IMG/VR virus record: IMGVR_UViG_3300029548_000183
Length of the DNA: 64,000 nucleotides
Origin: a virus
Lineage: Duplodnaviria > Heunggongvirae > Uroviricota > Caudoviricetes
Direction: 5' to 3' (one strand)
A program made the position numbers and the translations under genes. Under the pieces are notes generated by a model, which was not told where the DNA came from, did no database searches, and saw nothing but the letters and a program-made list of their open reading frames with translations. Of the stretch, positions 5,926 through 45,128 are shown piece after piece. Positions within the stretch are counted from its first letter, which is position 1. Each line of letters opens with the position of its first letter.

Positions 5926-6135
5926 ATGCAAAAAGACAGCATGAAAGAATTGCAAAATGAAAGATTAAATACAAAGAAAAAAGAAATAGTTAGTAGGCAG
6001 AATGCATTGGAGATATATTGGCAGAACAACAAGGATAAGCCACTGGTTGAGAAAAATGCAATAAACGAACTGCTCATATTAATGCAATTAAAATCAGAGG
6101 TTGAAGAGTTGGAAAATTATTTGAAAATGTTGTAG
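5926..6135 (+). CDS. hypothetical coiled-coil protein
   Basis: RBS AAAGGAACGAG before ATG. Confidence 0.4.
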   Translation: MQKDSMKELQNERLNTKKKEIVSRQNALEIYWQNNKDKPLVEKNAINELLILMQLKSEVEELENYLKML

Positions 6136-6190
6136 AAAAAATTGAAAAAAATATAATAAAAGCAGAAACTCATCAAAAAAAGCATCAAAA

Positions 6191-6620
6191 ACACAGTTGC
6201 AAAAAATGGTGATTTTTGGCATTATGATATTATAATTGCAACAAGAGAGGAAATGTTCCACCAATCCGAATCACCACCCCGGATATTACTTTCTTCTCTT
6301 GTAAAAATACAAGAGGAAAAATAGTTAAAAAGTTAATTTTTCATTTAATAATTTCTTTCTTATAAATATATAAAACAGCTGCCGGTCCTCTTGGGCAGTT
6401 GGAACCGTGGAATCATTGTTTTGACAAACTTACATGACTCATCCCCCAATAAACGCTCTCATGTAAGTGCCGGCTCATCCCGGCTGATTCCAATAGACAA
6501 GGCAAAACTTGTCATGAGTGGCAGCAAAGAGACACTCCTTAACTCTTTGCAAACTCCTATTATTATTTAGACGAACGGATAAGAAAAAGATCATGGTAGC
6601 CACTCCCATGGTCTTTTTTA
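6191..6620 (+). ncRNA. candidate structured non-coding RNA (paralog of the 41617-42215 region)
   Basis: No ORF. Starts with the shared motif AAAAACACAGTTGCAAAAAAT. Shares blocks AAATACAAGAGGA, CCTCTTGGGCAGTTG..GAATCATTG and the hairpin module GTGCCGGCTCATCCCGGCTGATTCCA with 41745-42215. Confidence 0.3.
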
Positions 6621-6728
6621 TGTAAAAAAAAGGAATATTATTCTTCTTTTTTATCTCTTTTTTAAAAAAATCCATATTAAACATATAAAAATAAAAATTG
6701 GAGTTTAAACATGAAAGGAGATACAAAA

Positions 6729-7094: not shown

Positions 7095-7110
7095 AACCAT
7101 ATTATAAATG
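7095..7110 (+). promoter_or_regulatory. conserved promoter-proximal motif AACCATATTATAAATG
   Basis: One of more than 20 near-identical copies. Each lies 20-60 nt after a terminator and 20-70 nt before an RBS, always on the same strand as the downstream gene. Confidence 0.5.
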
Positions 7111-9236: not shown

Positions 9237-9303
9237 TGTCATTGAAAAATGTAACCATATTATAAATGTAAACATTAATAATGGGAGATTGGAGTAAATT
9301 ATT

Positions 9304-12013: not shown

Positions 12014-12354
12014 ATATAAAATAAAAAACAGGAGGTTTATAAAAGTCAACAACCCATCACTAAAGTAGTGTACTTGCAATAGCAAGTGGTTGATTAGCCT
12101 AAATACTTTGAGGACTACGTTACCATAGAATACATAGTCACCAGTGGATACTTCTCACGTCCACTGCTCTGAGAAGCCAAGTAAACATCTCTGAAGGGTA
12201 AGGAGAAGTCGGAGCCGTTAAAACCCATGGATAACATTGGCGATGAGAACCTACCACATTCATTTACTCATATATCTGGATGTGAGAGTGACATGGAGTG
12301 GATTTCCACTTCGATTGTCACATTTTAGTAACCGGAAGAAAGGAGAATTTTTGG

Positions 12355-12654
12355 ATGAATACTGAAGATATAGTAATTATAGTGTTTGTATCGTTATGGA
12401 TTATAGGGCTAATAACTGGGTACTTTTTGTACATAAAGAAAGAAACTAGTTCTTTCCGCATTAATAAGATGACATATGTTCTACCTAACCTTACATTTGC
12501 AATTTGTTTTGTATTTTGCAAGTTTATTATGAATTATGATTTAAAAGATTTTCTTCTGGAAGATGGAATTATGAGTTTAATTATATTTCTACTTTTATTT
12601 GACCCGGAGGAACAAAAAATAATTAATAACGAAATTAAGAGTCATATTTTTTGA
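12355..12654 (+). CDS. small membrane protein
   Basis: RBS GAAAGGAGAA before ATG 12355. Confidence 0.4.
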   Translation: MNTEDIVIIVFVSLWIIGLITGYFLYIKKETSSFRINKMTYVLPNLTFAICFVFCKFIMNYDLKDFLLEDGIMSLIIFLLLFDPEEQKIINNEIKSHIF

Positions 12655-16664: not shown

Positions 16665-16720
16665 TGAAAAAACATTGAAAAAAGGAATAATATTTCTTTT
16701 TTTTATCTATATTCAAAACA

Positions 16721-16736
16721 TAACCATATTAAATAT
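16721..16736 (+). promoter_or_regulatory. conserved promoter-proximal motif (AACCATATTAAATATG variant)
   Basis: Part of a ~80-bp promoter/5'UTR module nearly identical to 28703-28780. Confidence 0.5.
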
Positions 16737-16778
16737 GAAACAAATTAATAATTGGAGTTAAATGAAAGGAGAAAAAGT

Positions 16779-18984: not shown

Positions 18985-20241
18985 TTAAGGAAGACTTTCT
19001 ATCAGCACCTCTTCTTCTATCACTTCTGCTTTTGGATCAATTATTGATTCCTCTATGTACGCATTTTGGGATTCCACTGTTCCCATACCTGCCCAATTTT
19101 GTCTAATGCATTCTATCAACCAACCTGTTACATTTCTAACATTATTTGCATTATTTAACAATTGACCTGCTTCATCTATTATATGTAAATCGTATCCTGC
19201 ACATTCTGCAACAGCTCTTGCATCAGAAACTTTCAAATCATAAGTATCAGATACATATTCAATTATGGCATTGATTCTTTCCATGTCCTTCTCATCATAC
19301 TTGAACATCTTCTGAGCTCGTTCTCTTATTTCTAACATGTTCTGATGATTTCTTGTATTTCTAAATATGGTGAATACATATTTTTTAGGTCTTCCGTATC
19401 CTCCAACTTCTTCATACTCAAAATCTATGTCCGTTAATTCTCTTATCTCTTTTTGTGCAACATCTATTACTTTTTCTCGTAGGGCATAAGTTTGCTTATA
19501 CTTATTTTTGTCCTTTCCTTTTAATTTAGACATTATTTTTTCATAGTCCTTACATCCCTGACTCATTAATATTTTTGCCTCATTGTTTTGAGAGTCATTT
19601 AAATCATAAATACCTAATTTGAATCTTAATTCACATTCATCAATTTCAACTACAACACTATTTTTAAAAGCTAATTTTCTCAATAAAAAAGATTCTTTTC
19701 TAAACATCTCATACATTTTCATTGAATATTTTGACCTCATGGGAATGGTATTTGTGGAACTAAATACAGTAAACCCAATACCCTTTCGCTGAAGATTAGT
19801 AAGAAAAGGCGTAACACTAGGAGCAAATTTTATTTCAACACCTCGTCTTTCTATGTAATGGGCTTTTTCTATCAATACATAAAACCCTAGATTCATTCCC
19901 TCTTCATTTATCCCCTCAAAATAAAAGGTATTATTGTTTGATAAATCAAATACGGCTCTCTTAACCTGACTGTAAATGGAATTTCCCTTCACTCCCAATG
20001 CTTGTTTTAATTCCCTGATTGGAATAAAGACACCAAGCCCTTTATCTGGTGGAACTTCTTCAAATGGATTTATTTTTGCCAATGCTACATTCAATAATTT
20101 CATGCCATTTAAAGTTAAATTATAACTACTTGTAATTAACGGATTGGATTTTACTATCGTGAATGGAGATGGTAATTCATTTTGACCAACCAACTCCATT
20201 GTTACTGTATCATTTTCCACTACTGGTACATCATTTGGCAT
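18985..20241 (-). CDS. plasmid replication initiator, Rep_3 (RepB-like) family
   Basis: N-terminal IVKSNPLITSSYNLTLNGMKLLNVALAKINP matches the Rep_3 signature (vvKsNdLieasY.LtlnEqrlil); iteron array lies upstream. Confidence 0.8.
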   Translation of the reverse strand: MPNDVPVVENDTVTMELVGQNELPSPFTIVKSNPLITSSYNLTLNGMKLLNVALAKINPFEEVPPDKGLGVFIPIRELKQALGVKGNSIYSQVKRAVFDLSNNNTFYFEGINEEGMNLGFYVLIEKAHYIERRGVEIKFAPSVTPFLTNLQRKGIGFTVFSSTNTIPMRSKYSMKMYEMFRKESFLLRKLAFKNSVVVEIDECELRFKLGIYDLNDSQNNEAKILMSQGCKDYEKIMSKLKGKDKNKYKQTYALREKVIDVAQKEIRELTDIDFEYEEVGGYGRPKKYVFTIFRNTRNHQNMLEIRERAQKMFKYDEKDMERINAIIEYVSDTYDLKVSDARAVAECAGYDLHIIDEAGQLLNNANNVRNVTGWLIECIRQNWAGMGTVESQNAYIEESIIDPKAEVIEEEVLIESLP

Positions 20242-20439
20242 ATTATTTCACTCCCTGATATTTTTTTCGTTCACGTTCAATAAACTTAAATTACAACTTT
20301 TGAGGTTAATTGTCAAGCACAATAACCTTAAATTTTTTCTTAAAATGTGCTGCCTTAAATTCATAAATGTTTTCTTAATTGCCTACATTCCCTTTGTTTA
20401 TGGGTTATTTGCTTATATTTTTTTTAAATTTTTCTTTTC

Positions 20440-21140
20440 AACTCTTGAAAATGAAATTCAACTTTTAGGGTTAATTGTGTTTTTCCATTTTACCCTTTGT
20501 AAAAAAATCTTGGTATTTACTCCAAGACTAAAAATCCATCAAAAAGTTTTGACTTTCTATCAAAAAGTTTTAACTTTTTTCCCACAGTTCCCATTTTTCC
20601 TGACTTTTTTTTGACTGTAATATGTTTAACATACTATTTTGTAAATTCATTAGGGGATAGTATATAAGCTTTGAATAATATATTATATTTATATTTTATA
20701 TTTAAGTTTTAGCTATCTTATATCTTTTGGGGAAAGTTTGCAACCCTATTTTTTTGAAAAATCTGGAGTGTCTGCACTTTTCCAGTATTACTTTTTTGAA
20801 CTTTTATTTAATTTCAACTTTTTTAAGTGTTTTTTTGTTTAACTACAAAAAGTTTTGTTTTTTAATTCCATTTTTTTATTTTTCTTTCGGTGATGATTTT
20901 ATTCTTAAAAATAAACTTTTTGCACTATTTATTTTTTTTACTTTAATATAGAAGAAACTCATTACAGATTTGTTTATTTTTGTATTTTGTTTCTTCTTTT
21001 TTTGAAATTCAACTTTTGTGGTTATTTTGCCTTGAGCTCTTCTGCTTTATTTTGTAATTATACAAAAAGTTTTATTTACACTTGTATTATGTTTTGCCTT
21101 TTTAAAATTCAACTTTTTGCAGTGTTTTTATTTATGAAAA
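20440..21140. repeat. dispersed inverted copies of the iteron core (AAATTCAACTTTT..GGTTA)
   Basis: At least 4 copies of the reverse complement of AACCAAAAAAGTTGAATTT, between rep and the direct-repeat array. Confidence 0.45.
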
Positions 21141-21282
21141 TAATCTTCAAAAAATTTTTTTATATATTTGTAAAAAAAATCACTTACATGGATTTGTGTA
21201 CAAGTTAGAAAACAGATCATCATTTTATTGGCAAAAAAATAATTTCTTAGAGAAATAAATTCATCTTTTAAGGTAAATAATT

Positions 21283-22285
21283 AACCAAAAAAGTTGAATT
21301 TCAGGGAAATCTATGTTGCACTTCTGCTTTTTCTTCATAATAAATAAAATTTTGAAAAAAACAAAATAAAACTTTTGTAGTTATTAATTAACCAAAAAAG
21401 TTGAATTTCAGGAAAAACTATATTGGTCTACTTCTTTTGCTTCATAATAAAAAGGATTTTTTAATGACAAATAAAACTTTTAAGGTTATTATTAACCAGA
21501 AAAGTTGAATTTCAGGAAAAATTATATTAGCTTTCTACTTCTGATACATTATAAACAGGATGTTGGGTAAGAACAAAATAAAACTTATGGGGTTAACATT
21601 TAACCAAAAAAGTTGAATTTCAGGAAAAACTATGATGCTTTTTTGCTTTTGCTACATAATAAAAGGGATTGCTTTAAGTAAAATAAAACTTTTAAGGTTA
21701 TTATTAACCAAAAAAGTTGAATTTCAGAAAAAACTATGTTGTTCTACTGCTTTTGCTACATAATAAAAGGGATTGCTTTAAGTAAAATAAAACTTTTAAG
21801 GTTATTATTAACCAGAAAAGTTGAATTTGATAAAAAAAACAAGTTGCTCTCCTGCTTTTACTACACAATAAAAGGGCTTTTTGGGAAAAAAACAAAATAA
21901 AACTTTTGTAGTTATTAATTAACCAAAAAAGTTGAATTTTGGAAAAAACTATGTTGTTTTTCTGCCTTTACTTCATAATGAAAGGAATTTTTTAATAAAA
22001 ATAAAACTTTTATAGTTATTAATTAACCAAAAAAGTTGAATTTTAGAAAAAAACTATGTTGTTCTACTGCTTTTACTACATAATAAAAGGGCTTATTTTA
22101 ATGGAAATAAAACTTTTAAGGTTATTATTAACCAGAAAAGTTGAATTTGATAAAAAAAACAAGTTGCTCTCCTGCTTTTGCCACACAATAAAAGAAATTA
22201 TTTGGAAGAACAAAATAAAACTTATGGGATTAATAATTAACCAAAAAAGTTGAATTTTGGAAAAGTATCATATACTATTGCATAT
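21283..22285. repeat. iteron array: ~10 direct repeats of ~105-110 bp, each containing the core AACCAAAAAAGTTGAATTTCAG
   Basis: Repeat starts near 21283, 21379, 21493, 21601, 21706, 21810, 21920, 22027, 22130 and 22238. Array lies upstream of the divergent Rep_3 gene. Confidence 0.7.
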
Positions 22286-22351
22286 GTTAATAATAAGAAA
22301 TTTTTTTTCATATATAAAAAAAGAAAGCATTTCTGCTTTCCTTTTCTTTTC

Positions 22352-22852
22352 TTATTTCTCTTCTTTTGATAAATTTATTTCTATTATTTTTTTTAGATCA
22401 GGATACTCATTTGAAAGAATATTTAAGTATTCTATAATTGCATCTCTAATAAATTGGGATGTGTTAATATCAGCATATAATGCTGCAGTTTTACTCAACT
22501 CATCCAATTTTCTTGTAAGATATATTTTTTTTTGAATTGTATTTTCTGTTTTTACAAAATCTTCTAACATTTTTTTTATTGAAGTATTTGTTTGATCATC
22601 TGATGATAATTCTTGTTTTTCTTCCTCTTTTTGGGGAAGTGACATTTTTTCTTCTTTTTTTATTTCTTTCTCTAAGTTTATGTTTGACTCTTCAGTAGCA
22701 TTTTCATTTTCTGTTTTATCAGATAATGAATCAGAATCATTTTCTGATATTGGTTTTATTTTTTTTTCTACAACATTATTGCTTTCTTTTTTCTTTTTTT
22801 CACTTTCAAATCCAAACAACAATTCCTCAGTGAAGGATTTTGTTTTTGCCAT
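22352..22852 (-). CDS. small acidic protein with C-terminal ribbon-helix-helix-like segment; probable ParG/omega-type centromere-binding protein
   Basis: Immediately downstream of parA in the same operon; C-terminus ..SKTAALYADINTSQFIRDAIIEYL. Confidence 0.5.
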   Translation of the reverse strand: MAKTKSFTEELLFGFESEKKKKESNNVVEKKIKPISENDSDSLSDKTENENATEESNINLEKEIKKEEKMSLPQKEEEKQELSSDDQTNTSIKKMLEDFVKTENTIQKKIYLTRKLDELSKTAALYADINTSQFIRDAIIEYLNILSNEYPDLKKIIEINLSKEEK

Positions 22853-22869
22853 AATTTTATTTCTCTCCT

Positions 22870-23637
22870 CTATTTTTCATTTATAAATTCATCAACTAAT
22901 TTGACATAGTCTTTTGCACTTGTACAATTAGGCATGTAATTTAATAACAGTTCTCTTTTGGTTTGCGCTTCCTTGACACTAATGCATCTTCTAATTGTTG
23001 TTTTAAAAAGTTTTGTTCCTATTTGTCCAGCTATTTCTTCCAAAGTTTTTTTAACTTCTCTGGAAAGAATAGTTCGTTTATCATCCATGACAAGAAGTAA
23101 TCCTGCTATATTTAAATTTGGATTAAATCTTTTTTGTGTCTTCTTTATTGAGTCATATAATTGAGCTAATCCCTGTACTCCATATTGATCTGCTGTTATT
23201 GGGATGATAATATCATCAACTGCAACAAGGCAATTAATCAATAATGTATTTAAACTTGGACCAGTATCAATAACTAAATAATCATATCCATTTAAATTGG
23301 AAATGGAATCTCTCAATTTAAAGAAACCATCAACATCTCCATTTAATATTTTGTCAGCATTTGAAAGAAGACTATCAGATGCAATAATATCTCCTGCTTC
23401 TGTATGCTGAATTGCTTCATTAATGTCAACCGGATTTTCTTCTTCAAGAATTACATCATATAAGGTAGTTATACCATCTCCTGTATTAGCTCTGTATGTA
23501 TTAGTGCTGTTGCACTGTGGATCTGCATCTATAAATAAAACCTTATATCCTTTTGTTTGCAATACATTTGCTATTGCTGTGGCTGTGGATGTTTTTCCAA
23601 CTCCACCTTTTTGATTTGCTATAAGTATAGTTCTCAT
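22870..23637 (-). CDS. parA: ParA-family partition ATPase
   Basis: Deviant Walker A motif KGGVGKT in ..IANQKGGVGKTSTATAIA..; typical ParA length. Confidence 0.9.
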   Translation of the reverse strand: MRTILIANQKGGVGKTSTATAIANVLQTKGYKVLFIDADPQCNSTNTYRANTGDGITTLYDVILEEENPVDINEAIQHTEAGDIIASDSLLSNADKILNGDVDGFFKLRDSISNLNGYDYLVIDTGPSLNTLLINCLVAVDDIIIPITADQYGVQGLAQLYDSIKKTQKRFNPNLNIAGLLLVMDDKRTILSREVKKTLEEIAGQIGTKLFKTTIRRCISVKEAQTKRELLLNYMPNCTSAKDYVKLVDEFINEK

Positions 23638-23689
23638 TTTTTTCTCCTAATTTTATAATATGTGTACTCCTTTTATATACTATACTTTT

Positions 23690-23880
23690 TTTTGATTTTT
23701 ATGTCAATGAATTTTAGTACCAAAGTACTAAGGTACCAAGGTACTATAGTACTGTTTTTTTTTAGAAAATAGACGGTACCAAAGTACCAAGGTACTGCTT
23801 TCTTGAAAAATAGACGGTACCTTGGTACTTTGGTACTACTTTTTAAAAGGAAAGACAGAACCAATGTACCTTAGTACTAG
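23690..23880. repeat. heptad-repeat operator/centromere-like site upstream of parA (GTACCAA/GTACTAA units, direct and inverted)
   Basis: GGTACCAAAGTACCAAGGTACT in both orientations. Confidence 0.5.
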
Positions 23881-24295
23881 ATTTAAAAATGTATAGTATT
23901 TAAAAAAATCGATAACTGAGGAAAAGTTCTTCTTAAATAACTACTTTCGTATGGTTTTTTATATAATATTTTTTGTATTTTAATATGGTAAGTATATTTT
24001 ATCTGATATGCTTGCATATGAAATACAAGTATATCTGACACTTGGAGATTTACAATAGTAAGAAATATTTGTTCTCCAATTTCCATAATAATTGTTCATA
24101 TTCATTAAGAAAATTATGGTGTTAAATTTTAAAAAAAAATTGTTGCTTTTTTTTAATTTAAAAAATCTTGCTCATTTATTATGTTCCAGCCTTTGTTGTA
24201 AATAATATTATGTTTTATATTTTACATTAAAAAGAAATACCCTTAAAATTGCATTCAGTTATATTATCTTGAAAATATGAAGGGGCTGCGTTTAT

Positions 24296-25190
24296 GATTG
24301 GCAAACAGTATTAAAGTACCAAGGTACTGTCTTTCAGGAATGTATAGACAGTACTAAAGTATCAAAGTACCAAGGTACTATCTTTTGGAAGCATATAGAA
24401 GGTACTAAAGTACCAAAGTACCAAGGTACCAAGGTACTGCCTTTCAGGAATGCATAGACGATACTAAAGTACCAAAGTACCAAGGTACTACATTTTGGAA
24501 GTATATAGACGGTACCAAAGTACTAAGGTACTACATTTTAGAAATACATAAACGGTACTAAGGTACCAAAGTACCAAGGTACTGCCTTTCAGGAATGCAT
24601 AGACGGTACTAAAGTACCAAAGTACCAAGGTACTACATTTTAGAAATACATAAACGGTACTAAGGTACTAAAGTACCAAGGTACTGCCTTTTAGGAATGC
24701 ATAGACAGTACTAAAGTACCAAGGTACTACATTTTGGAAGCATATAGACGGTACTAAAGTACCAAAGTACCAAGGTACTACATTTTGGAAGTATATAGAC
24801 GGTACCAAAGTACTAAGGTACTGCCTTTTAGGAATGCATAGACGGTACTAAAGTACCAAAGTACCAAGGTACTACATTTTGGAAGCATATAGACGGTACC
24901 AAAGTACTAAGGTACTACATTTTAGGAATATATAGACGGTACTAAAGTACCAAAGTACCAAGGTACTACATTTTGGAAGCATATAGACGGTACCAAAGTA
25001 CTAAGGTACTACATTTTAGGAATATATAAACGGTACTAAGGTACTAAAGTACCAAGGTACTGCCTTTTGGAAGCGTATAGACAGTACTATAGTACCAAGG
25101 TACCAAGGTACTGCCTTTCAGGAATGTATAGACAGTACTAAAGTGCCAAAGTACCAAGGTACTACATTTTAGAGACTATACAAACAATTA
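24296..25190. repeat. array of ~17 tandem ~45-58-bp units, each ..ATAGACGGTACYAAAGTACCAAGGTACT..; candidate parS centromere
   Basis: Seen directly. Built from the same GTACYAA heptads as 23690-23880; no unique spacers. Confidence 0.6.
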
Positions 25191-25309
25191 TAAAAGTATA
25201 TATTAAGTAAAAATCAAAGTATTTTAAGAATTTCTTAATGCACTTTAATATGAAAATCCATATTGAAAATTTTTTCCTAAGAATATAAAATATTTTTGAG
25301 GTATATAAA

Positions 25310-26523: not shown

Positions 26524-26790
26524 AATGCAAAACACAGTTGCAAAAAATCAACATTTCTTAAATTTGGCGTAATTCAGGCTAATCATTGCGGAATCATTGA
26601 TAATTCTTATTCTGGAGATAACGATCAGTGGAAATTTCCTGCAATTGCATTAAGAAATACAAAAATCCATAAAAATGATAGGATTTGTCAGTTCAGGCTT
26701 ATGAAAAAAATGGAAGATGTGACATTGGAAGAAGTTGAACATCTTAATGAGAGAGACAGGGGTGGCTTTGGCTCAACTGGAACCAATTAG
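26524..26790 (+). pseudogene. dut: dUTPase remnant (C-terminal ~85 codons only)
   Basis: The frame encodes ..[35 protein letters not shown]. These are dUTPase motifs III-V. Motifs I/II and a start codon are absent, and the frame opens at a stop within the promoter motif. Confidence 0.6.
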
Positions 26791-30740: not shown

Positions 30741-31249
30741 AAAATAATGAAAATTAGAAGTCACAATGTGGCTTCTTTTTTTTGCTCAAAAAAAAAGAAG
30801 GCAATGCCCATATTAAGGAAAAGGAAAACAAAATAAACAAAAAATAAAAATATGAAAGGAAATTCAAGAAAAATGCAAGAAGAAAAATCAAACAAAAAGA
30901 AACAAAGGAAACAAAAAAAATTAAAATCATAGACGTATTAATGTTTGGCTTCGCTTATTCGATGGTTGCTGTCTGCTTATTTATTTTATTTATTCTTTTT
31001 TTTTCTATAAAAAATGCTCAAAAACACAGAATGCAAAAATTTTAAAAAAATCAAAAAAAGTAAAGTAGACATATCAGGTTTTCGAAATCTGAAAAACATC
31101 AAAAAAGCATTAATAAAAAATTAATAAAAAAGAAAGGGCATGGCTAATGAGAAAAAACATAAAAAACAGGGGTCACCCATCCCCCCTGACAAAAAGATGA
31201 AGATTATTTGTGTACATTGAAAATTTAAACAAGGAGGAAAGCCTTTCAA

Positions 31250-33407: not shown

Positions 33408-33575
33408 TGGCAAAAAGTAGTCAAAAACACAGTTGCAAAAAATGAGCAAAAACTTGTTTTTGATATAGTATTTGTCAAAAGGCAGTCCACGGTTCGGCTC
33501 CGTTAGGCTAAGTGGGATGAGCAGATACATTTCCAACTGCCAATAAAACTAAAAATTAAGAAAGGAAAATTTTTA

Positions 33576-34070
33576 ATGAAGAAAATTTTTTCAAATTATG
33601 AAATCAGAGAAAAAGAAGTTTATGTGGTTAAGGACAAAATGGAAGGTCCTGTACTAAAAAAAGAAGCAATGAAAGAGGCTCAGGAGCAGGAACTTGATCT
33701 TGTTCAGATTGCAGTCAAGGATGGAGTTCCAATCTGCAAATATCTTGACTATAACAAGTATGTGTATGATTTAAAGAAAAAAGAAAAGGGAAACAAGCAT
33801 AAAAAACAGGAAGTAAAGGAAATAAAGATTACTGCAAACACAGAAGAACATGACATAAAAATTAAGGAAAACAAAATAAGAAAAATGCTTGAAAAAGGCT
33901 GTGAAATTAAAATAACAATGATGTTTCGTGGCAGGGAAAAGGCTAACAAGAAATTTTATGTTCCTAAACTTGAATCAATGGTTGAAGACTTAATGGATGT
34001 TGCAGTTGTGTCAAAAAAAATAAAAATTACTGATTACAATGCATTTGTGATTCTTAAATCAAACAGGTAA
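33576..34070 (+). CDS. infC: translation initiation factor IF-3 homolog
   Basis: By-eye alignment to bacterial IF3 over its full length: ..IREKEVYVV..ELDLVQIAVKDGVPICKYLDYNKYVY..QEVKEIKITANTEEHDIKIKENKIRKMLEKGCEIKITMMFRGRE.. Confidence 0.8.
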   Translation: MKKIFSNYEIREKEVYVVKDKMEGPVLKKEAMKEAQEQELDLVQIAVKDGVPICKYLDYNKYVYDLKKKEKGNKHKKQEVKEIKITANTEEHDIKIKENKIRKMLEKGCEIKITMMFRGREKANKKFYVPKLESMVEDLMDVAVVSKKIKITDYNAFVILKSNR

Positions 34071-35641: not shown

Positions 35642-38600
35642 ATGGATAATTTTAAAAATTTTACGGATTTAAAACAGAAACAGATTACAATCTGTCAGAA
35701 ACTCATTCCTGTTGGAATGACAAGAAAAAACATTGACATTTTTAATGCAATGGAAAGTGATGAATATGTCTCTGAAAATAAGGGTGAAATCAGAAAGTTA
35801 ATTAAGCTATTGGCCAGAGAAAAAATGGAAGAAGGAATAAGCAAGGCAAAATCAAATTTAAGTTTTACAAAACTTCTTGGCTTGATGAATGAGTACAATG
35901 AAACTGATTCTGAATATAAGATGGAAGTCCTTGAAAGACTCTTTGATGAAAGAGTAAGACTTGCCAACATTATTGCATCAGAATTTAAGACAAAATTTTC
36001 CTGTGCTGACACAATAACTACTCTTCTTCCTGAATATGTTAATGAACATTTCAATGGAAGTGAAAAGGAAGAATACCTAAACCTTCTTGAAGAGGTTAAG
36101 AAACATCAGGCAATGTTTAACAGGTTTGAGTCAAACATTGACAACATGTTTTCACCAATGCTAAAAAAAGGCTCTGTTGTATACAGAATGTTGGTTGAAA
36201 ATACTCAGATATTTCTTAATAACAAATCAAAAACTGATAAGGAAGATTTTAAGAAAATCATTGATTTGTCAGAACTTGATGATGAAACAAAAAGCATCAT
36301 CATCAAAAGATGCATTGACATTGATGAAGAGTCATATGCAGAAGTCCTAATTCAGGAAGACATTGACGGATACAACTATTGCATTGGAATGCTTAATAGT
36401 GAAAGCAAGATGTTTTGTGATAAAAACAAATTAAACTACAAGGACTTTGAACTTAAAAACTTATATAAGGCAATGCTCTGTGAAAAGACTGCATTCTTTG
36501 AAAAAATTGATTCATTTAAAAATGATGAGCAGATTGTGGATTCCTACAATTCATTAATGTCAAACATTAATGCAAAAAACATTGCAAAAACATATGAAAA
36601 GTGCATGGGACACATGGATGGAATGCACATAAAACCATCAGTTCTTTCATTTTATTCTAATGTTGTGTATGGCAAATGGAATGTTGTAAGAAACTGCATA
36701 AGAGCCTACTGTCAGGATGAAATGAATTCAATAAAAAAGAATAAAAAGAGTCTTGATGATTATTATGAAGCTTTCATTAAGAAAGGCATAACAATTAACC
36801 AGATAAGTAACATTGTATCATCATATGCTGAAGAACTTGAGCTAAAGGTCTTTGAGAAAGATTTATCAGATACAATATACAGTTATCTTTTACATAAATA
36901 TGCATGTGTGGAAGAGGAAAAAACTCCATTGAAGTCTGATGAAAGCAAAAATGCAGAAACAATCAGGGTTGAACTTGAACATTGCATTCAGGCATTAAGG
37001 TTACTAAAAATTTATGACACTGAAAATGACAATCTCAATGAAGAAATGAAAACATTGATTGATGAAATCATTGATGAATTGTCACCTGCCATATTATTGT
37101 TCAACATGACAAGAAACTACATAACTGCAAAACCTACTCCAAAGAAAAAACTTGCATTGACATTCAATACTGCAAGCTTTGGAGGAGGGTGGAGTGAAAG
37201 TGTTGAAAGTTCAAAGAGAGTGAGTTTACTAAAGGATGATGAAGGAAACAAGTACCTGATGATATACAACATAACAGGATGTAAGGCTAACAATGTTTCC
37301 ATGGTATCAGTTACGGAAAAAGTAAAGGCGAATTTACTTAATGACAAGAAGAACATTGACTGTTACAGAAAACTTGTATACAGTGCGGTTCCTGATGCAT
37401 TAAAGGACATATCAAGACTTTTCATTAACAAACTTGAAGATGAAGAAATGATTAAACGCTACAAGAATAAGGAACACAAGGAAAACAGGGAATTTCTTAA
37501 TGAACTGATAAGTGTCTTAAAGAAAAAGATTAATGAGCATCCTACATGGTCAAGATATGGCTTTAAGTTTAGGGATGAATACGATTCCTTTGATGATTTT
37601 TGCGATGACATTAATAATCAGGGCTACTATGCAAAATGGAAATACATTCCAAAGACAGTAATTGATGAGTATGTCGAAAATGGATGCATTTATCTGTTTA
37701 AGATTTACAACAATGATTATAGTGCATACAAAAAGGCAGGTTCAAAGGTTAAAACCCATACAAGATACCTTGATTACTTATTTAGTGATGAAAATGAAAA
37801 AACAGATCTCATCAAATTACTTGGAGGTCTTGAAGTATTCTATAGAGAGCCTCAGATTAAGAATCCTTATGTACATAAAAAAGGTAGCATTCTTGTAAAC
37901 AAGAAATACAAGGATGGAACAATCATTGGTAATGAATATAAGGAGTTATTTAAAAAGGCACAGACAACAAAACTTGACAATGTGTATACAAGAGCGTGTC
38001 CATATGACATCATAAAGGACAAGAGATATACAATGGAACAGTTTGAAGTTCATTTTCCAATATTGATTGGTAATGACAATAATCCTGAAAATTTCATTGA
38101 AATGAGTAAACACTTTGTTGAAAATGCAAAGCACACGGTTGTTGTTGGTAGAAACAGGGACAATCTTTTATATGTGTCTGTTTATGAGGAAAATGCCTTA
38201 ATTCATTCAAAATCACTTAATAAAGTAAATGGAACTAATTACAAGGATAAGTTATTCATAATTGAAGATGCAAAGAAAAACAATGCAAGAAACTGGAAAA
38301 CAATAGGCTCAAATGATGCATTGCTGACAGGATACATTTCAGCAGTAATAAAAGATATCACAGACCTTGTTCTTAAATACAATGCAGCTCTCGTCATTGA
38401 AATGGGAAGTAACTTGGCAAAAGACAGAAATCTCTTGCCAAACAGAGTATATACAAAGTTTAAGGAAGCACTACTTCACAAATTGGAATTTCTAATTGAT
38501 TCAGAAAAGGCTGATGATGAACCGGGTGGATTATTACATCCTTATCATTTGACTGAAATTAATAAGAAAAATCCAAAGAGAAGTATTGATACTCCACACA

Positions 38601-39181
38601 ATGGAATAGTGTTACTGGTACCTTCATTTTATTGTGGTTTAACTGATCCGGAATCAAATCTTTGTAATCTTACTTATGCAAGAACAAAAAAGGAAAAGGA
38701 AGAGGTTCTTAAAAAAATTAAGGGATTTAAGTACAATAAGGAAGAAAGTATTTTTGAATTTGTTTATGACATGTCATTATTCAATCCTAACATGAAAGGA
38801 AAGTTTACTTGTACAAGCAATGGAGACAGACTGGTTGATACAGAAAATGATAAGGTGGTAATGGACTTAACACATTATATTGAAGATAAGTTAAAATCAC
38901 TTGGAATCGAGTATAAGTCAGGAAATGAAATTAATCTCATTTCTGATGATGGGTTAACAAATGAAACTTTATTTAACTGTATTAGATACACATTACAGAT
39001 GAACAATGGTAATTTCTTCATTTCTCCTGTTACGGGATTTTGCTATACTTGTGATGGTTGTTCAAACATTTCTTATAATAGAAATTTGTACAACAGATCA
39101 AAACTGGTTAAGGAAAACATAAAGAGTGGAAAGAAACTTAAGTTCATGACAATCAAGGACATTTACAAACCTCAGTCTTAA
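35642..39181 (+). CDS. cas12a: Cas12a (Cpf1)-family protein; RuvC and Nuc catalytic residues appear substituted (predicted nuclease-deficient)
   Basis: Cas12a hallmark blocks found by eye: QKLIPVGMTRKNI (WED-I), RNYITAKPTPKKKLALTFNTASFGGGW, GCIYLFKIYNNDYSAYKK..THTRYLDYLFSDENEKTDLI..LEVFYREPQ, YDIIKDKRYTMEQFEVHFPI, and the RuvC-II block YNAALVIEMG with Glu retained. The RuvC-I position reads TVVVGRNRDNLLYV where IGIDRGERNL is expected. The Nuc block reads TLQMNNGN (Arg replaced by Asn). No DADANGAY-like RuvC-III motif is present. Confidence 0.85.
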   Translation: MDNFKNFTDLKQKQITICQKLIPVGMTRKNIDIFNAMESDEYVSENKGEIRKLIKLLAREKMEEGISKAKSNLSFTKLLGLMNEYNETDSEYKMEVLERLFDERVRLANIIASEFKTKFSCADTITTLLPEYVNEHFNGSEKEEYLNLLEEVKKHQAMFNRFESNIDNMFSPMLKKGSVVYRMLVENTQIFLNNKSKTDKEDFKKIIDLSELDDETKSIIIKRCIDIDEESYAEVLIQEDIDGYNYCIGMLNSESKMFCDKNKLNYKDFELKNLYKAMLCEKTAFFEKIDSFKNDEQIVDSYNSLMSNINAKNIAKTYEKCMGHMDGMHIKPSVLSFYSNVVYGKWNVVRNCIRAYCQDEMNSIKKNKKSLDDYYEAFIKKGITINQISNIVSSYAEELELKVFEKDLSDTIYSYLLHKYACVEEEKTPLKSDESKNAETIRVELEHCIQALRLLKIYDTENDNLNEEMKTLIDEIIDELSPAILLFNMTRNYITAKPTPKKKLALTFNTASFGGGWSESVESSKRVSLLKDDEGNKYLMIYNITGCKANNVSMVSVTEKVKANLLNDKKNIDCYRKLVYSAVPDALKDISRLFINKLEDEEMIKRYKNKEHKENREFLNELISVLKKKINEHPTWSRYGFKFRDEYDSFDDFCDDINNQGYYAKWKYIPKTVIDEYVENGCIYLFKIYNNDYSAYKKAGSKVKTHTRYLDYLFSDENEKTDLIKLLGGLEVFYREPQIKNPYVHKKGSILVNKKYKDGTIIGNEYKELFKKAQTTKLDNVYTRACPYDIIKDKRYTMEQFEVHFPILIGNDNNPENFIEMSKHFVENAKHTVVVGRNRDNLLYVSVYEENALIHSKSLNKVNGTNYKDKLFIIEDAKKNNARNWKTIGSNDALLTGYISAVIKDITDLVLKYNAALVIEMGSNLAKDRNLLPNRVYTKFKEALLHKLEFLIDSEKADDEPGGLLHPYHLTEINKKNPKRSIDTPHNGIVLLVPSFYCGLTDPESNLCNLTYARTKKEKEEVLKKIKGFKYNKEESIFEFVYDMSLFNPNMKGKFTCTSNGDRLVDTENDKVVMDLTHYIEDKLKSLGIEYKSGNEINLISDDGLTNETLFNCIRYTLQMNNGNFFISPVTGFCYTCDGCSNISYNRNLYNRSKLVKENIKSGKKLKFMTIKDIYKPQS

Positions 39182-39287: not shown

Positions 39288-39502
39288 AGTTAAAGAAAAG
39301 CAAATGTCTGCTGATATGCAGATTAGATTGTGCCACTCATTCCATCAGAAGTTAAAAGAAGACGAAATGTCTACCATCATGTAGATCATAACAAGTAGCA
39401 TATCCCAATATACAGTAAAAGGAAGTAAAATGTCTGCCATTATGTAGATATGGTGTGATTACTCTGGATTTCAATGAGAAAAAATTCTGCTGTTGATGAA
39501 AT
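39288..39502 (+). CRISPR. mini CRISPR array: 3 Cas12a-type repeats plus a degenerate terminal repeat, 3 spacers of 26-27 nt
   Basis: Period of 63 nt. Repeats of ~36 nt end in AATGTCTGCTGATATGCAGAT, AATGTCTACCATCATGTAGAT and AATGTCTGCCATTATGTAGAT (Cas12a-like UCUAC-loop-GUAGAU hairpin). A 4th copy at 39470-39502 is degenerate. Confidence 0.75.
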
Positions 39503-39628
39503 ATATTCCGTAAGCTTGTAAAATCATGAAAAGAAAAAATTATTCAAAAACTAAATAGAGTCAGTTAATCTGGCTCTTTTCTTTTTGTAGAATGCAAAAA
39601 TTGAGATAACAAACAAAATGGTATAATA

Positions 39629-39726
39629 AAAAATAAAAAAAGTAATGTCTGCTGTTATGCAGATTCAGTGTGTGTAATAGGACAAACTATATTAAAAGAA
39701 AACAAAATGTCTGCTATTGCGTAGAT
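39629..39726 (+). CRISPR. second mini-array: 2 repeats, 1 spacer (26 nt), with its own promoter-like and terminator sequences
   Basis: Repeats end GTAATGTCTGCTGTTATGCAGAT and AAAATGTCTGCTATTGCGTAGAT. TTGAGA-N15-TATAAT lies upstream (39601-39627). A hairpin plus T-run lies downstream (39740-39766). A separate terminator at 39558-39596 divides it from array 1. Confidence 0.65.
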
Positions 39727-39833
39727 ATAATAAGTAAAAATTGGAGTCAAAAGTAGACTCCTTTTTTTGTACAAAAATAAACAAGGAAACAACCATATTA
39801 AGTATAAGAAAACAATGAAAGAAGGAAGAAAAG

Positions 39834-41497: not shown

Positions 41498-41616
41498 AAA
41501 TCATTAAAGAGTCTCAAAAATTTTAAAGTGTATGGGCAACCATATTATGAATACAGAAAGATTTGAGGCTTTTTATATTAAAGAAAATAAAAAACTGGTC
41601 AAAAAAAAAGCCAAAA

Positions 41617-42215
41617 ACCCACTTGCAAAAATCTGGGTATTTTGGAATTTGGTATCATAGTTCTTGTCAAGAGGACAAAACAAACATAATGATGTCATAA
41701 ATCTTTCTCTTACAAAATGAGGAATCATTGTATAGACAAGCCACAATAAAGAAGTCTTATCCCCCTAGTGACTCACAACTGTGGTGTTGGTTCATCCCAA
41801 CTGATTCCACTTGGCAATGATTTTTGCCAAAATAATACTTCTGTCGTAAGAAGTACTCCTTATTTATTGATCATTTCTCCATGGTTAGAAGGCTGTGGAG
41901 AAGAATGCTCTACAAAAAAGTTTGTATCAGGAAAAATCAACATTGTTTTCCTGTTGCAATAAATACAAGAGGAATATTTTTTTTCGAAATGTGTTCATAT
42001 ACTACATTTTTTGTAGCTTGCGTTTGCAACTGTTGTACCTCTTGGGCAGTTGCATCATAGAATCATTGCCTTGGGCATGCCATATGTTGAAATATAATAT
42101 CCTATCCCCCCATTTTTTTTCAATGTATGGTGCCGGCTCATCCCGGCTGATTCTACTTGGCAAGATGAATTGCCAATTTTTTTTAATCTTTTTCACTCAC
42201 ATCCTTTGGGGTGTG
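41617..42215 (+). ncRNA. candidate large structured non-coding RNA immediately upstream of the tRNA (paralog of 6191-6620)
   Basis: ~600 nt without an ORF. Contains two copies of a module: a 5-bp stem with a YTCATC loop (GTTGG..CCAAC / GCCGG..CCGGC, compensatory changes), then TGATTCYACTTGGCAA-N6-TTGCCAA plus a T-run. Shares further blocks with 6191-6620. Confidence 0.3.
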
Positions 42216-42221
42216 GGGCTT

Positions 42222-42295
42222 GGATCATTAGCTCAGCAGGTTGGAGCGGTTGTCTCATAAGCAACAGGTGGTAGGTTCGACTCCTACATGATCCA
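42222..42295 (+). tRNA. tRNA with anticodon CAU (elongator Met or lysidine-dependent Ile2 type)
   Basis: Cloverleaf folded by hand. Acceptor GGATCAT/ATGATCC with 7 Watson-Crick pairs; D-arm GCTC-AGCAGGTTG-GAGC; anticodon arm GTTGT-CTCATAA-GCAAC; T-arm GTAGG-TTCGACT-CCTAC; discriminator A; no encoded CCA. The paired 1-72 position argues against an initiator. Confidence 0.85.
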
Positions 42296-42504
42296 TTAAA
42301 AAAGGAATATTATTCCTTTTTTTTTGCTCTTTTTCTCTGATTAAACAAAAAAGAGTATACAGCCATATTATAAGTGAAGGGCAAAAAGTCCTTCTTCTAA
42401 GTATTACAAATTTTAAATTCAAAAGAAAGGAGGATCAGGGATTAAACTGAATATCAATATTCTACCCATCTGTTATTCTCACAGATGGGTCCCTGTTTTT
42501 ACGA

Positions 42505-43585: not shown

Positions 43586-44002
43586 ATGAAATTAGATAAT
43601 AATAATCATTCGGTATTCATGCTCCATTATCACCTTATTATGTGCATTAAATATCGTAATAAAGTTATAGATGATAAAATCTCAAACCGTCTCAAAGAAA
43701 TATTTGAGAAGATAGCTCCTTCCTATAACATCACGTTAGAGGAATGGAATCACGACATAGACCATGTACATATACTATTTCGAGGACAGCCCAATACGGA
43801 AATAAGTAAATTTATCAATGCTTATAAATCTGCAAGCAGTAGACTTATCAAAAAAGAATATCCTCAGATACGTAAATATCTCTGGAAAGAGATGTTCTGG
43901 TCACAGAGCTTTTGTCTGTTAACCACGGGCGGTACTACGGTAGATATTATTAAGCAATATATCCAATCTCAAGGTAAGAAAGATGGCAAACAGAGCAATT
44001 AA
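43586..44002 (+). CDS. tnpA: IS200/IS605 family transposase TnpA (HUH Y1)
   Basis: HYHLIMC..YRNKV.. and ..HDIDHVHILFRGQP.. (HuH motif), ..ASSRLIKKEYP..LWKEMFWSQSFCLLTTGG.. over 138 aa. Confidence 0.85.
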   Translation: MKLDNNNHSVFMLHYHLIMCIKYRNKVIDDKISNRLKEIFEKIAPSYNITLEEWNHDIDHVHILFRGQPNTEISKFINAYKSASSRLIKKEYPQIRKYLWKEMFWSQSFCLLTTGGTTVDIIKQYIQSQGKKDGKQSN

Positions 44003-45128
44003 GTACAGAGCATATCCTACAACTAAACAATCTGTCATGTTTGCTAAGACCTTTGGCTGTTGTCGTAAGGTCTATAATCTCATGCTTTCAGATAAGATTG
44101 AAGGCTACAAGGCTACTGGTGAGTTTCCTACTGTTACACCTGCTAAGTATAAGAACGATTATCCTTATCTTAGAGAAGTAGACAGCCTTGCTCTTGCCAA
44201 TAAGCAGATGGACTTACAGGAGGCTTTTCGTAATACATTTAGTAAATCTCGTAAGAAGAAAAACGGTTTTCCTAAATTCAAGTCTGCCAAACATAGTCGT
44301 AAGTCCTATACTACAAACAATCAAAAAGGCACAGTTGCTATCATAGATAACAAATGTATTAAGCTCCCTAAGATTGGAAAGGTAAAAGCTGTTATCCATC
44401 GTGTGCCTGACGATAGTTGGACAATTAAATCGGCTACCGTATCACAGGAATCTGACGGCAAATATTATATCTCCGTACTCTTTGAGTTTGAGAATACCGT
44501 AAATCCTTATGTAGCCGATAAAACTAATGCCATCGGGTTAGATTATGCTTCCGACGGCTTATACGTAGATAGTAATGGCAATACAGGTACTAATCATAAG
44601 TATTATCGTGAGAGCCACAACAAGCTTGCTAAGGCTCAGCGTAAGCTATCACGTATGCAAGGCTCTAAGAAACACGAGGTTAAGTCCAATAATTATATAA
44701 AGCAACTCCGTAAAGTGAATAAGATACATAGGCATATCGCTAATCAGCGTTTGGATAACCTGCATAAGATATCTACTGAGATAGCCAATCAGTATGATGT
44801 TGTTTGTGTAGAATCCCTAAATATGAAAGTTATGTCAAATAAAGGTTTTGGTAATGGCAAAGCTACTCTTGATAACGGATATGGCATGCTCCTGTCTATG
44901 CTTGAATACAAGTTATCTGACAGGAATAAGTATCTCATCAAGGTAGACAAGTGGTTCCCGTCATCACAGATATGTCATTGTTGTGGTATGCTACATCCTG
45001 AAATGAAGAATTTAGCCATCCGTAAAATGACATGTAATTGTGGTCTTACAATAAGCCGTGACCAGAACGCTGCTATCAATATCCTAAAGGAAGGATTACG
45101 ACTACTGACTGAAGTAGCCCGAAACTAA
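43983..45128 (+). CDS. tnpB: TnpB (IS605 OrfB) RuvC-like RNA-guided nuclease family protein
   Basis: C-terminal zinc finger ICHCCGM..CNCG, followed by ISRDQNAAINILKEG (RuvC-III). Start overlaps the end of tnpA. Confidence 0.85.
   Translation: MANRAIKYRAYPTTKQSVMFAKTFGCCRKVYNLMLSDKIEGYKATGEFPTVTPAKYKNDYPYLREVDSLALANKQMDLQEAFRNTFSKSRKKKNGFPKFKSAKHSRKSYTTNNQKGTVAIIDNKCIKLPKIGKVKAVIHRVPDDSWTIKSATVSQESDGKYYISVLFEFENTVNPYVADKTNAIGLDYASDGLYVDSNGNTGTNHKYYRESHNKLAKAQRKLSRMQGSKKHEVKSNNYIKQLRKVNKIHRHIANQRLDNLHKISTEIANQYDVVCVESLNMKVMSNKGFGNGKATLDNGYGMLLSMLEYKLSDRNKYLIKVDKWFPSSQICHCCGMLHPEMKNLAIRKMTCNCGLTISRDQNAAINILKEGLRLLTEVARN

Follow-up and report, generated by a model that had tools for sequence, protein, structure and literature searches.

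In the IMG/VR virus record IMGVR_UViG_3300029548_000183 (64,000 nt; this whole stretch is called the window below), we detected two paralogous loci for structured non-coding RNAs (ncRNAs), RNA A (6240-6619) and RNA B (~41665-42184), which carry one and two copies, respectively, of a compact four-way-junction module with tRNA-like geometry. The module matches no known family, and the best reading of the data is a new, narrowly distributed structured ncRNA family. That the family is a genuine structured RNA we regard as very likely. The overall explanation, in which paralogous stand-alone ncRNAs act in trans through the tRNA-like module, seems to us about evenly balanced, and the mechanism of tRNA mimicry is proposed tentatively, as the less probable part.

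The initial annotation, made from the sequence alone, had described 6191-6620 as the second copy of an ncRNA family that also occupies a tRNA-adjacent region, and had preferred a functional RNA to a remnant. The features described at 6191-6620 are confirmed. The two loci are indeed paralogous; the unit of the family is, however, the four-way-junction module, present in three copies (one in RNA A and two in RNA B).

The module and its conserved structure

The module of 86-96 nt is found at 6409-6491 (A), 41721-41808 (B1) and 42059-42154 (B2), and each copy folds alone into the same four-way junction with a 3' hairpin as the minimum free energy (MFE) structure (z = -4.3, -2.9 and -4.4 for A, B1 and B2). 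P1 is a 7-pair helix, GGAAUCA/UGAUUCC, closing the junction. P2 is a short hairpin with the loop UUUG, AUAG or UUG among the three modules, P3 is a long hairpin with a large loop (21-34 nt) carrying the motif YAUCCCCC, and P4 is a 5-pair hairpin with the 6-nt loop YUCAUC. The linkers within the junction are 0-1 nt long, P4 abuts directly on the 3' strand of P1 in all three modules, and an unpaired A directly after P1 is followed by the P5 hairpin. Sequence is conserved across the modules in P1, in the loop of P4 and in the motif of the P3 loop. The P3 stems have unrelated sequences and different lengths (9, 6 and 14 pairs in A, B1 and B2), and the P4 stem is GCCGG/CCGGC in A and B2 and GUUGG/CCAAC in B1.

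RNAalifold, applied to a plain MAFFT alignment of the three modules, recovered P1, P2, P4 and P5, and 5 of the 22 pairs, lying within these helices, were changed on both sides. Over 14 distinct natural variants 96.4% of the paired cells can pair, and shifting the partners by 1-3 columns lowers this share to 17-45%. Covariation scores 0.21 versus 0.11 in shuffles (none of 500 shuffles reached 0.21), and the four-way junction is the MFE fold in 12 of the 14 variants. Stem substitutions between strains are mostly wobble-compatible, which is suggestive support for the structure. True copies score 96-125 bits with the covariance model (window copies in Table 1), while its best match in 0.88 Mb of unrelated viral DNA has 22.7 bits and is without P4.

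Paralogous RNA A and RNA B

We found 54 9-mers common to 6191-6620 and 41617-42215, versus a mean of 3.4 and a maximum of 14 in shuffles. Three copies of the core TCATCCCRRCTGATTC are present in the window versus 0.12 expected, and the third, at 41792, means that the tRNA-adjacent RNA B holds two modules, not one. Most blocks named in the initial annotation were found in place: the promoter-type box AAAAACACAGTTGCAAAAAAT at the start of the region (6186-6206), AAATACAAGAGGAA common to both loci (6305 and 41961), the block ACTCATCCCCC preceding the shared module block (6437-6447) and the terminator hairpin at the end, with the stem AAAAAGAUCAUGG / CCAUGGUCUUUUU and a U-run (6584-6619). Two others are present with shifted coordinates. 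The CCTCTTGGGCAGTTG-type block CCTCTTGGGCAGTTG lies at 6387 and 42038, the position of 42047 given for RNA B being off by 9, and the shared module block GTGCCGGCTCATCCCGGCTGATTC, 24 identical nucleotides from 6467 and 42130, had been placed at 6469, off by 2. The spacer from CCTCTTGGGCAGTTG to GAATCATTG is 8 nt in RNA A and 7 nt in RNA B, and GAATCATTG is present in three places (6410, 41722 and 42060). Additional common blocks are the 5' hairpin, in which CAAGAGRGG and UCUCUU are common to both RNAs, and ACTCCTTA at 6534 and 41855. The 8-mer ACUCCUUA of the hairpin following module A recurs at 41855-41862, after a module in both RNAs.

The common architecture includes the 5' hairpin (H1 in RNA A), a linker, a hairpin with a linker-complementary loop (H2 in RNA A), and module(s) followed by a hairpin. 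In its layout, RNA B resembles an RNA A into which one more module and further hairpins have been inserted behind the 5' hairpin. The RNA lengths are 380-520 nt (the RNA A body is ~380 nt), and the folds of both full-length RNAs are much more stable than those of shuffles (z = -7.3 for RNA A and -5.2 for RNA B). As read from the sequence, CAAGAGG of the linker and CCUCUUG of the H2 loop are complementary and could form a pseudoknot. The natural variants of H2 (6378 G>A, 6382 C>U and 6383 C>U) all retain pairing.

The only paralogous proteins near both loci are encoded by SPFH/Band_7 genes, downstream of each RNA and 24% identical, whereas RNA blocks of 14-24 nt are identical, suggesting selection or later exchange rather than a recent segmental duplication. 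The same MFE fold in all three modules, the compensatory changes and the strong divergence of the SPFH neighbours agree with the initial preference for a functional RNA over a remnant. A common short mobile repeat, similar to a miniature inverted-repeat transposable element (MITE) and with no conserved structure, had been named as the finding that would speak against it; we found that the structure is kept and detected neither terminal inverted repeats nor copies in the other genomes searched. Taken together, these data support two paralogous ncRNAs of one family and favour selected structure over a remnant.

Transcription signals, strand and coding potential

The 17-mer promoter box AAACACAGTTGCAAAAA has four perfect copies in the window and 12 copies with up to three mismatches, versus 1.9 expected, and 11 of the 12 are on the plus strand. 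An extended -10 element (TGnTAnnAT) is located ~21 nt downstream of the box in six aligned copies. Two of these promoters precede the RNA loci, and the others precede protein genes, including the IF3 gene. According to the box and the extended -10, the starts of transcription are placed near 6240 and 41665. The strong terminator of RNA A was missed by the pattern scan because the scan allows loops of at most 8 nt. In RNA B, the P5 hairpin of B2 resembles an intrinsic terminator in the terminator scan (42157-42176 followed by a U8 run), and a tRNA(CAU) gene starts 37 nt past this U-run on the same strand.

Promoter box, terminators and tRNA share the plus strand. Three G.U pairs in P3 of B2, as well as the G.U pairs created by several strain variants, would be A.C on the other strand, and the reverse strand folds less well.

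Comparison of the small open reading frames (ORFs) among natural variants detected no conserved ORF in the RNA regions. The 23-codon ORF 6253-6324 has four non-synonymous changes, one synonymous change and a frameshift, the 59-codon ORF 6391-6570 has two separate 1-nt insertions in variant L151, and the 23-codon ORF 41989-42059 has a stop at codon 3 in variant L146. RNA A is accordingly predicted from its sequence to have the features of a stand-alone small RNA, namely its own promoter, a Rho-independent terminator and no conserved ORF. Several strains carry one to three additional genes behind the terminator of RNA A, ahead of the gene that otherwise follows, and in strains with such insertions RNA A stays beside the upstream 69-aa gene. 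The insertions past the terminator show that RNA A is not the leader of the downstream gene.

Distribution

The Rfam 15 scan of the whole window at the gathering score, a check proposed with the initial annotation, detected only HEARO and tRNA matches, and at E <= 10 the regions 6100-6700 and 41550-42320 and the module alone gave noise or nothing. Distribution was analyzed by metagenome pattern scans and exact-protein look-ups. The pattern TCATCCCNNCTGATTC had 120 matches in IMG/VR, none with the P4 stem and the upstream GAATCA; two longer patterns and the tRNA sequence used as an anchor had no matches there. The longer pattern detected 22 loci in metagenomes, of which only 5 were true, all from the same element. 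Among 185,579 GTDB genomes there were 12 pattern matches and no covariance-model matches, blastn against INPHARED and PLSDB found nothing, and a structure-aware regular expression over the loci collected so far detected only the three window copies. No such RNA was found with relatives of the SPFH proteins (53-68% identity, on other contigs), of a 108-aa protein or of Cas12a (43-55% identity, on other gut elements) as anchors, and the neighbouring ATP-grasp protein had no relatives.

The RNAs are therefore found only in copies of one element, and the module is 94-100% identical in all assemblies fetched. These assemblies are human metagenomes, several of the records being labelled human gut. 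The element contigs reach 232 kb, the element itself is ~220 kb, and the index of the collection lists a neighbouring gene in 144 blocks.

Comparison with known RNAs

The 7 pairs of P1 are directly continuous with the 5-pair P4 in all three copies, which corresponds to the 7+5 geometry of the tRNA acceptor/T-arm. The short P2, the long P3, the 0-1-nt linkers, and the unpaired A after P1 with no encoded CCA, as in the adjoining tRNA(CAU), are also tRNA-like, and one copy, in RNA B, is predicted to be transcribed together with a real tRNA. Unlike a tRNA, the module has a 6-nt P4 loop YUCAUC versus the 7-nt T loop UUCRANY, a 3-4-nt P2 loop with no GG versus a D loop with GG, and a P3 of 6-14 pairs with a 21-34-nt loop versus a 7-nt anticodon loop. 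The Rfam tRNA model and ARAGORN with default settings called only 42221-42296 in the window, and no module. The module is not a tRNA. With thresholds lowered to 60-80%, ARAGORN calls each module almost exactly at the P1 boundaries, one base further 3', among obvious false positives. The module resembles in shape the tRNA-like elements that are cut by RNase P/RNase Z, namely mascRNA/menRNA and the plant mitochondrial t-elements. The two small stable RNAs of the phage T4 tRNA cluster also belong with the nearest known systems.

ROOL (RF03087) and GOLLD (RF01998) are similar to RNA A and RNA B in being long, heavily structured, located on mobile elements and often beside tRNA genes. Location on a mobile element beside a tRNA applies to RNA B only, RNA A having no adjoining tRNA. 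GOLLD env-38 adjoins a Met-tRNA, and tRNAs can lie inside GOLLD (PMC12286853). The ROOL and GOLLD covariance models gave no match over the window at the gathering score, nor at E <= 10 on both loci, and RNA A/B differ in being built of repeated cloverleaf modules and in their plasmid-like, not phage, host. Bacterial Y RNAs (YrlA) are described in PMC4201824 as modular ncRNAs in which one domain mimics tRNA, and RNA A/B are also modular ncRNAs with a tRNA-shaped domain. The window has no YrlA match in Rfam, and no TROVE (Ro60/Rsr) or RtcB domain was detected in its ~50 Pfam-scanned ORFs. YrlA keeps canonical T- and D-loops, whereas the module is without them. Membership in ROOL, GOLLD or the Y RNAs is rejected because no model matches. 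The RNA resembles ROOL and GOLLD in kind, as a large ornate RNA of a mobile element, and is a new family with a repeated tRNA-shaped module.

Two further classes were considered and rejected. A riboswitch or cis-leader class does not agree with the lack of a fixed position in the 5' untranslated region (RNA A is terminated and followed by insertions) or with a terminator-like P5 in B2 only. A MITE or other mobile-repeat class does not agree with three copies confined to two transcription units and no true matches in IMG/VR, GTDB, INPHARED or PLSDB.

Proposed function and alternative explanations

While P3 drifts, the sequences of P1, of the P4 loop and of the P3-loop motif stay constant, suggesting that these conserved parts probably contact a specific partner. 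We propose a trans-acting role for RNA A and RNA B as stable structured RNAs, in which the module may be a tRNA mimic, recognised via the P1/P4 helix and the conserved loops. Bacterial RNase P and RNase Z accept acceptor/T-arm minihelices, and the simplest mechanism would therefore be that the modules are recognised as tRNA-like and excised, or bound by a tRNA-recognising factor. RNase P could cut at the 5' edge and RNase Z after the unpaired A, dividing the transcript into pieces; another tRNA-binding factor is the alternative partner. The functional surface may be the two UCAUCCC-bearing loops. UCAUCCC in both loops resembles the 3' tail of 16S rRNA, suggesting pairing with G-rich sequences or with a tail-recognising factor. 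The same human-gut element encodes its own IF3 and tRNA(CAU) as well as several module copies. As a bolder version of tRNA mimicry, which we consider improbable, the UCAUCCC loops could imitate the anti-Shine-Dalgarno tail, by which the megaplasmid might disturb the initiation of translation in its host or lure away defence nucleases directed at tRNA or rRNA.

Several observations weigh against the overall explanation. Substitutions in the stems among strains comprise 9 compatible changes versus 3 disruptive singletons, not significantly above the ~50% expected for transitions. Each compensatory pair corresponds to about a single event, because the comparison includes only three paralogs and near-identical variants from one element lineage, the only lineage from which the family is known. 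The T-loop and D-loop features used by RNase P in real tRNAs are absent from the module, and the conservation of P1 and the loops is unneeded for RNase P or RNase Z and points to another partner. No complementary target was found in the window, either by GGGGGATR and GGGATGA counts or by loop-versus-ribosome-binding-site duplexes, and both transcription and processing of RNA A/B are predictions.

A base-pairing regulatory RNA is the first of the alternatives, and we consider it unlikely. The pyrimidine-rich loops (YAUCCCCC, YUCAUC, CCUCUUG and ACUCCUUA) would pair with G-rich ribosome-binding sites, the junction being a scaffold, as the C-rich loops of the Firmicute small RNAs RsaE/RoxS or RNAIII pair with such sites. 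The four kinds of C/U-rich motifs in predicted loops are kept between the paralogs, in our reading resemble the anti-Shine-Dalgarno tail of 16S rRNA, and belong to a predicted stand-alone transcript with its own promoter and terminator, similar to the several unpaired C-rich motifs of RsaE/RoxS and RNAIII. However, every GGGGGATR of the window is the reverse complement of a module or of the module motif, GGGATGA is about as frequent as expected by chance, and the loop duplex energies against 70 ribosome-binding-site windows are no better than those of shuffled loops. RNA A/B are also much larger than these small RNAs, carry the motifs within a four-way junction, have no sequence match and no match to the Rfam models of RsaE and similar RNAs, and no target was found.

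Evolutionary debris, that is, decayed tRNA genes or a short selfish (MITE-like) repeat copied three times and functionless, is rather improbable. The cloverleaf topology, one copy beside a real tRNA, the sub-threshold ARAGORN calls on the modules and the very narrow distribution would fit it. The conserved loops are unlike tRNA loops and common to all three copies, and the stems are kept by compensatory change while P3 is fully diverged. No terminal inverted repeats were detected, nor copies in any other genome (IMG/VR, GTDB, INPHARED, PLSDB), and the three copies, with none elsewhere in the window, have one orientation and lie inside two promoter-to-terminator units with other conserved parts around them.

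A little less probable again is a cis-acting leader or attenuator, in which read-through into the tRNA(CAU) and SPFH genes would be controlled by a signal that the module senses. It agrees with the terminator-like hairpin and U8 run of B2 P5 located 37 nt before the tRNA, for which a separate promoter was not seen, and with the position of both RNAs upstream of SPFH/Band_7 genes. RNA A, in contrast, ends in a strong terminator past which unrelated genes are inserted in several strains, the downstream genes have their own CCATATTA box, P5 of A and B1 is without a U-run, and SPFH homologues (53-68% identity) are present on other contigs without such an RNA. Small proteins encoded by the 23- and 59-codon ORFs are hardly credible: the ORFs exist, two with purine-rich stretches before them, but they are not common to RNA A and RNA B and carry the non-synonymous changes, frameshift, stop and insertions given above.

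Parts of RNA A and RNA B

Table 1. Predicted parts of RNA A and RNA B and the adjoining tRNA (positions in the window)
Feature	Position	Strand	Description
RNA A promoter	6186..6233	+	box AAAAACACAGTTGCAAAAAAT 6186-6206, extended -10 TGATATTAT 6225-6233; predicted start ~6240
H1, 5' hairpin, 13 pairs	6241..6302	+	ACAAGAGAGGAAA / UUUCUUCUCUUGU; homologous to 41664-41715 in RNA B; full-RNA folds
Linker block AAAUACAAGAGGAA	6305..6318	+	14-nt exact match to 41961-41974
H2 hairpin	6376..6401	+	CAGCUGCC, loop GGUCCUCUUG, GGCAGUUG; full-RNA fold
Module A, four-way junction	6409..6491	+	MFE z = -4.3; covariance model 111 bits
Module A P1	6409-6415 with 6485-6491	+	
Module A P2	6416-6419 with 6424-6427	+	
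Module A P3	6429-6437 with 6459-6467	+	loop contains CUCAUCCCCC
Module A P4	6469-6473 with 6480-6484	+	loop CUCAUC
Module A, unpaired A after P1	A6492	+	
P5 hairpin 3' of module A	6496..6513	+	GACAAG / CUUGUC; one pair compensatory versus RNA B copies
Hairpin after module A	6524..6550	+	GCAAAGAG / CUCUUUGC, loop ACACUCCUUAA; full-RNA fold
RNA A intrinsic terminator	6584..6619	+	13-pair stem, 9-nt loop, U-run; sequence and fold
RNA B promoter	41613..41658	+	box AAAAACCCACTTGCAAAAATC 41613-41633, extended -10 TGGTATCAT 41650-41658; predicted start ~41665
Module B1 and P5	41721..41830	+	B1 41721-41808, P5 41811-41830; fold z = -2.9; covariance model 125 bits
H2' hairpin of RNA B	42026..42053	+	GCAACUG/CAGUUGC, loop UUGUACCUCUUGGG; stem sequence unlike H2 of RNA A
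Module B2 and P5	42059..42184	+	B2 42059-42154; fold z = -4.4; covariance model 119 bits
tRNA, anticodon CAU, Met or Ile2 type, no encoded CCA	42221..42296	+	ARAGORN; Rfam tRNA 63.7 bits

Other signals were detected around these loci. The palindromic AU-rich hairpin AAAAAAGGAATATTATTCCTTTTTT is present after both RNA loci and elsewhere (6626-6650, 16678-16702 and 42298-42325); it marks the insertion point of the extra genes in related strains, and L144 has it in duplicate there. Before most genes (for instance, 7095-7110, 9253-9268, 16722-16737 and 42363-42372) there is a second recurring box, AACCATATTA(nn)AATG, which is unlike a standard sigma-70 promoter and is usually located directly after a GAGTCAC...GTGGCTC terminator hairpin, and with this hairpin and box each gene looks like its own cassette. 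A candidate fourth RNA locus at CATCCCCC, 31178, upstream of a flotillin gene, was rejected, being a plain hairpin in an unstructured region (z = -0.4). The region 31019-31192 has a degenerate promoter box AAAAACACAGAATGCAAAAAT and then the hairpin CAGGGG-UCACCCAU-CCCCCUG with the fourth CATCCCCC of the window, and the flotillin/SPFH gene starts at 31250.

The IF3 gene (33425-34070; Pfam IF3_N and IF3_C) is located behind a copy of the promoter box that also precedes the two RNAs, and its leader of ~100 nt contains the T-arm-like hairpin ACGG-UUCGGCU-CCGU. Right after another promoter box, 26530-26790 encodes only the C-terminal half of a dUTPase (Pfam positions 65-129 of 129), truncated or split. 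Just downstream of the SPFH gene of RNA B there is an IS200/IS605 unit (TnpA 43586-44002, TnpB 43983-45128), which is missing in L167 and L183.

Host element

A phage origin was considered and rejected after the Pfam scan of ~50 window ORFs, which detected plasmid-like genes, among them those for a Rep_3 initiator, a tyrosine recombinase and a SpaA/thioester adhesin. The scan also detected a sulfatase, three DNA methylases, HicB, YopX, an HNH protein, three SPFH proteins, IF3, Cas12a and the IS200/IS605 proteins TnpA and TnpB. The Rep protein is ~25% identical to the Rep of Clostridium, Butyrivibrio and Roseburia plasmids and the G+C content is 30%. The most fitting description of the host of the RNAs is a large plasmid-like element belonging to an uncultivated Firmicute of low G+C content.

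In the region 18985-25223 the Rep_3 initiator gene (minus strand) adjoins two large direct-repeat arrays, one at 21216-22264 with units of ~105/212 nt and one at 23696-25223 with GTACYAARGTAC-type 8-nt units at a spacing of 43-51 nt. The arrays are probably the origin and iterons, and with Rep_3 they make the window look plasmid-like, not phage-like. The Cas12a (Cpf1) gene (35642-39181), whose homologues with 43-55% identity are present on other gut mobile elements of ~100 kb, is followed by two mini CRISPR-like arrays (39290-39730); their repeats end in AATGTCTRC-N6-GYAGAT, three at 39303-39449 and two at 39643-39727. A HEARO (IscB omega-RNA) match of 93 bits at 12045-12254 is an orphan with no IscB gene after it; the protein encoded by the ORF that follows (12298-12654) has 118 aa, is membrane-like and matches nothing in Pfam. 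An exact 70-nt direct repeat (692-761 and 1947-2016, 1255 nt apart) overlaps a glutamine amidotransferase-like gene.

Significance

The narrow distribution limits the general importance of the family and the strength of the comparative evidence. If real, it would be a new structured RNA family among the few large ornate RNAs beside tRNA genes on mobile elements, and its compact tRNA-shaped module (86-96 nt) would be easy to test in vitro. The element is widespread in the human gut, uncultivated, and carries Cas12a, an orphan HEARO, IS605 and IF3, suggesting that the RNA could help it to manipulate its hosts.

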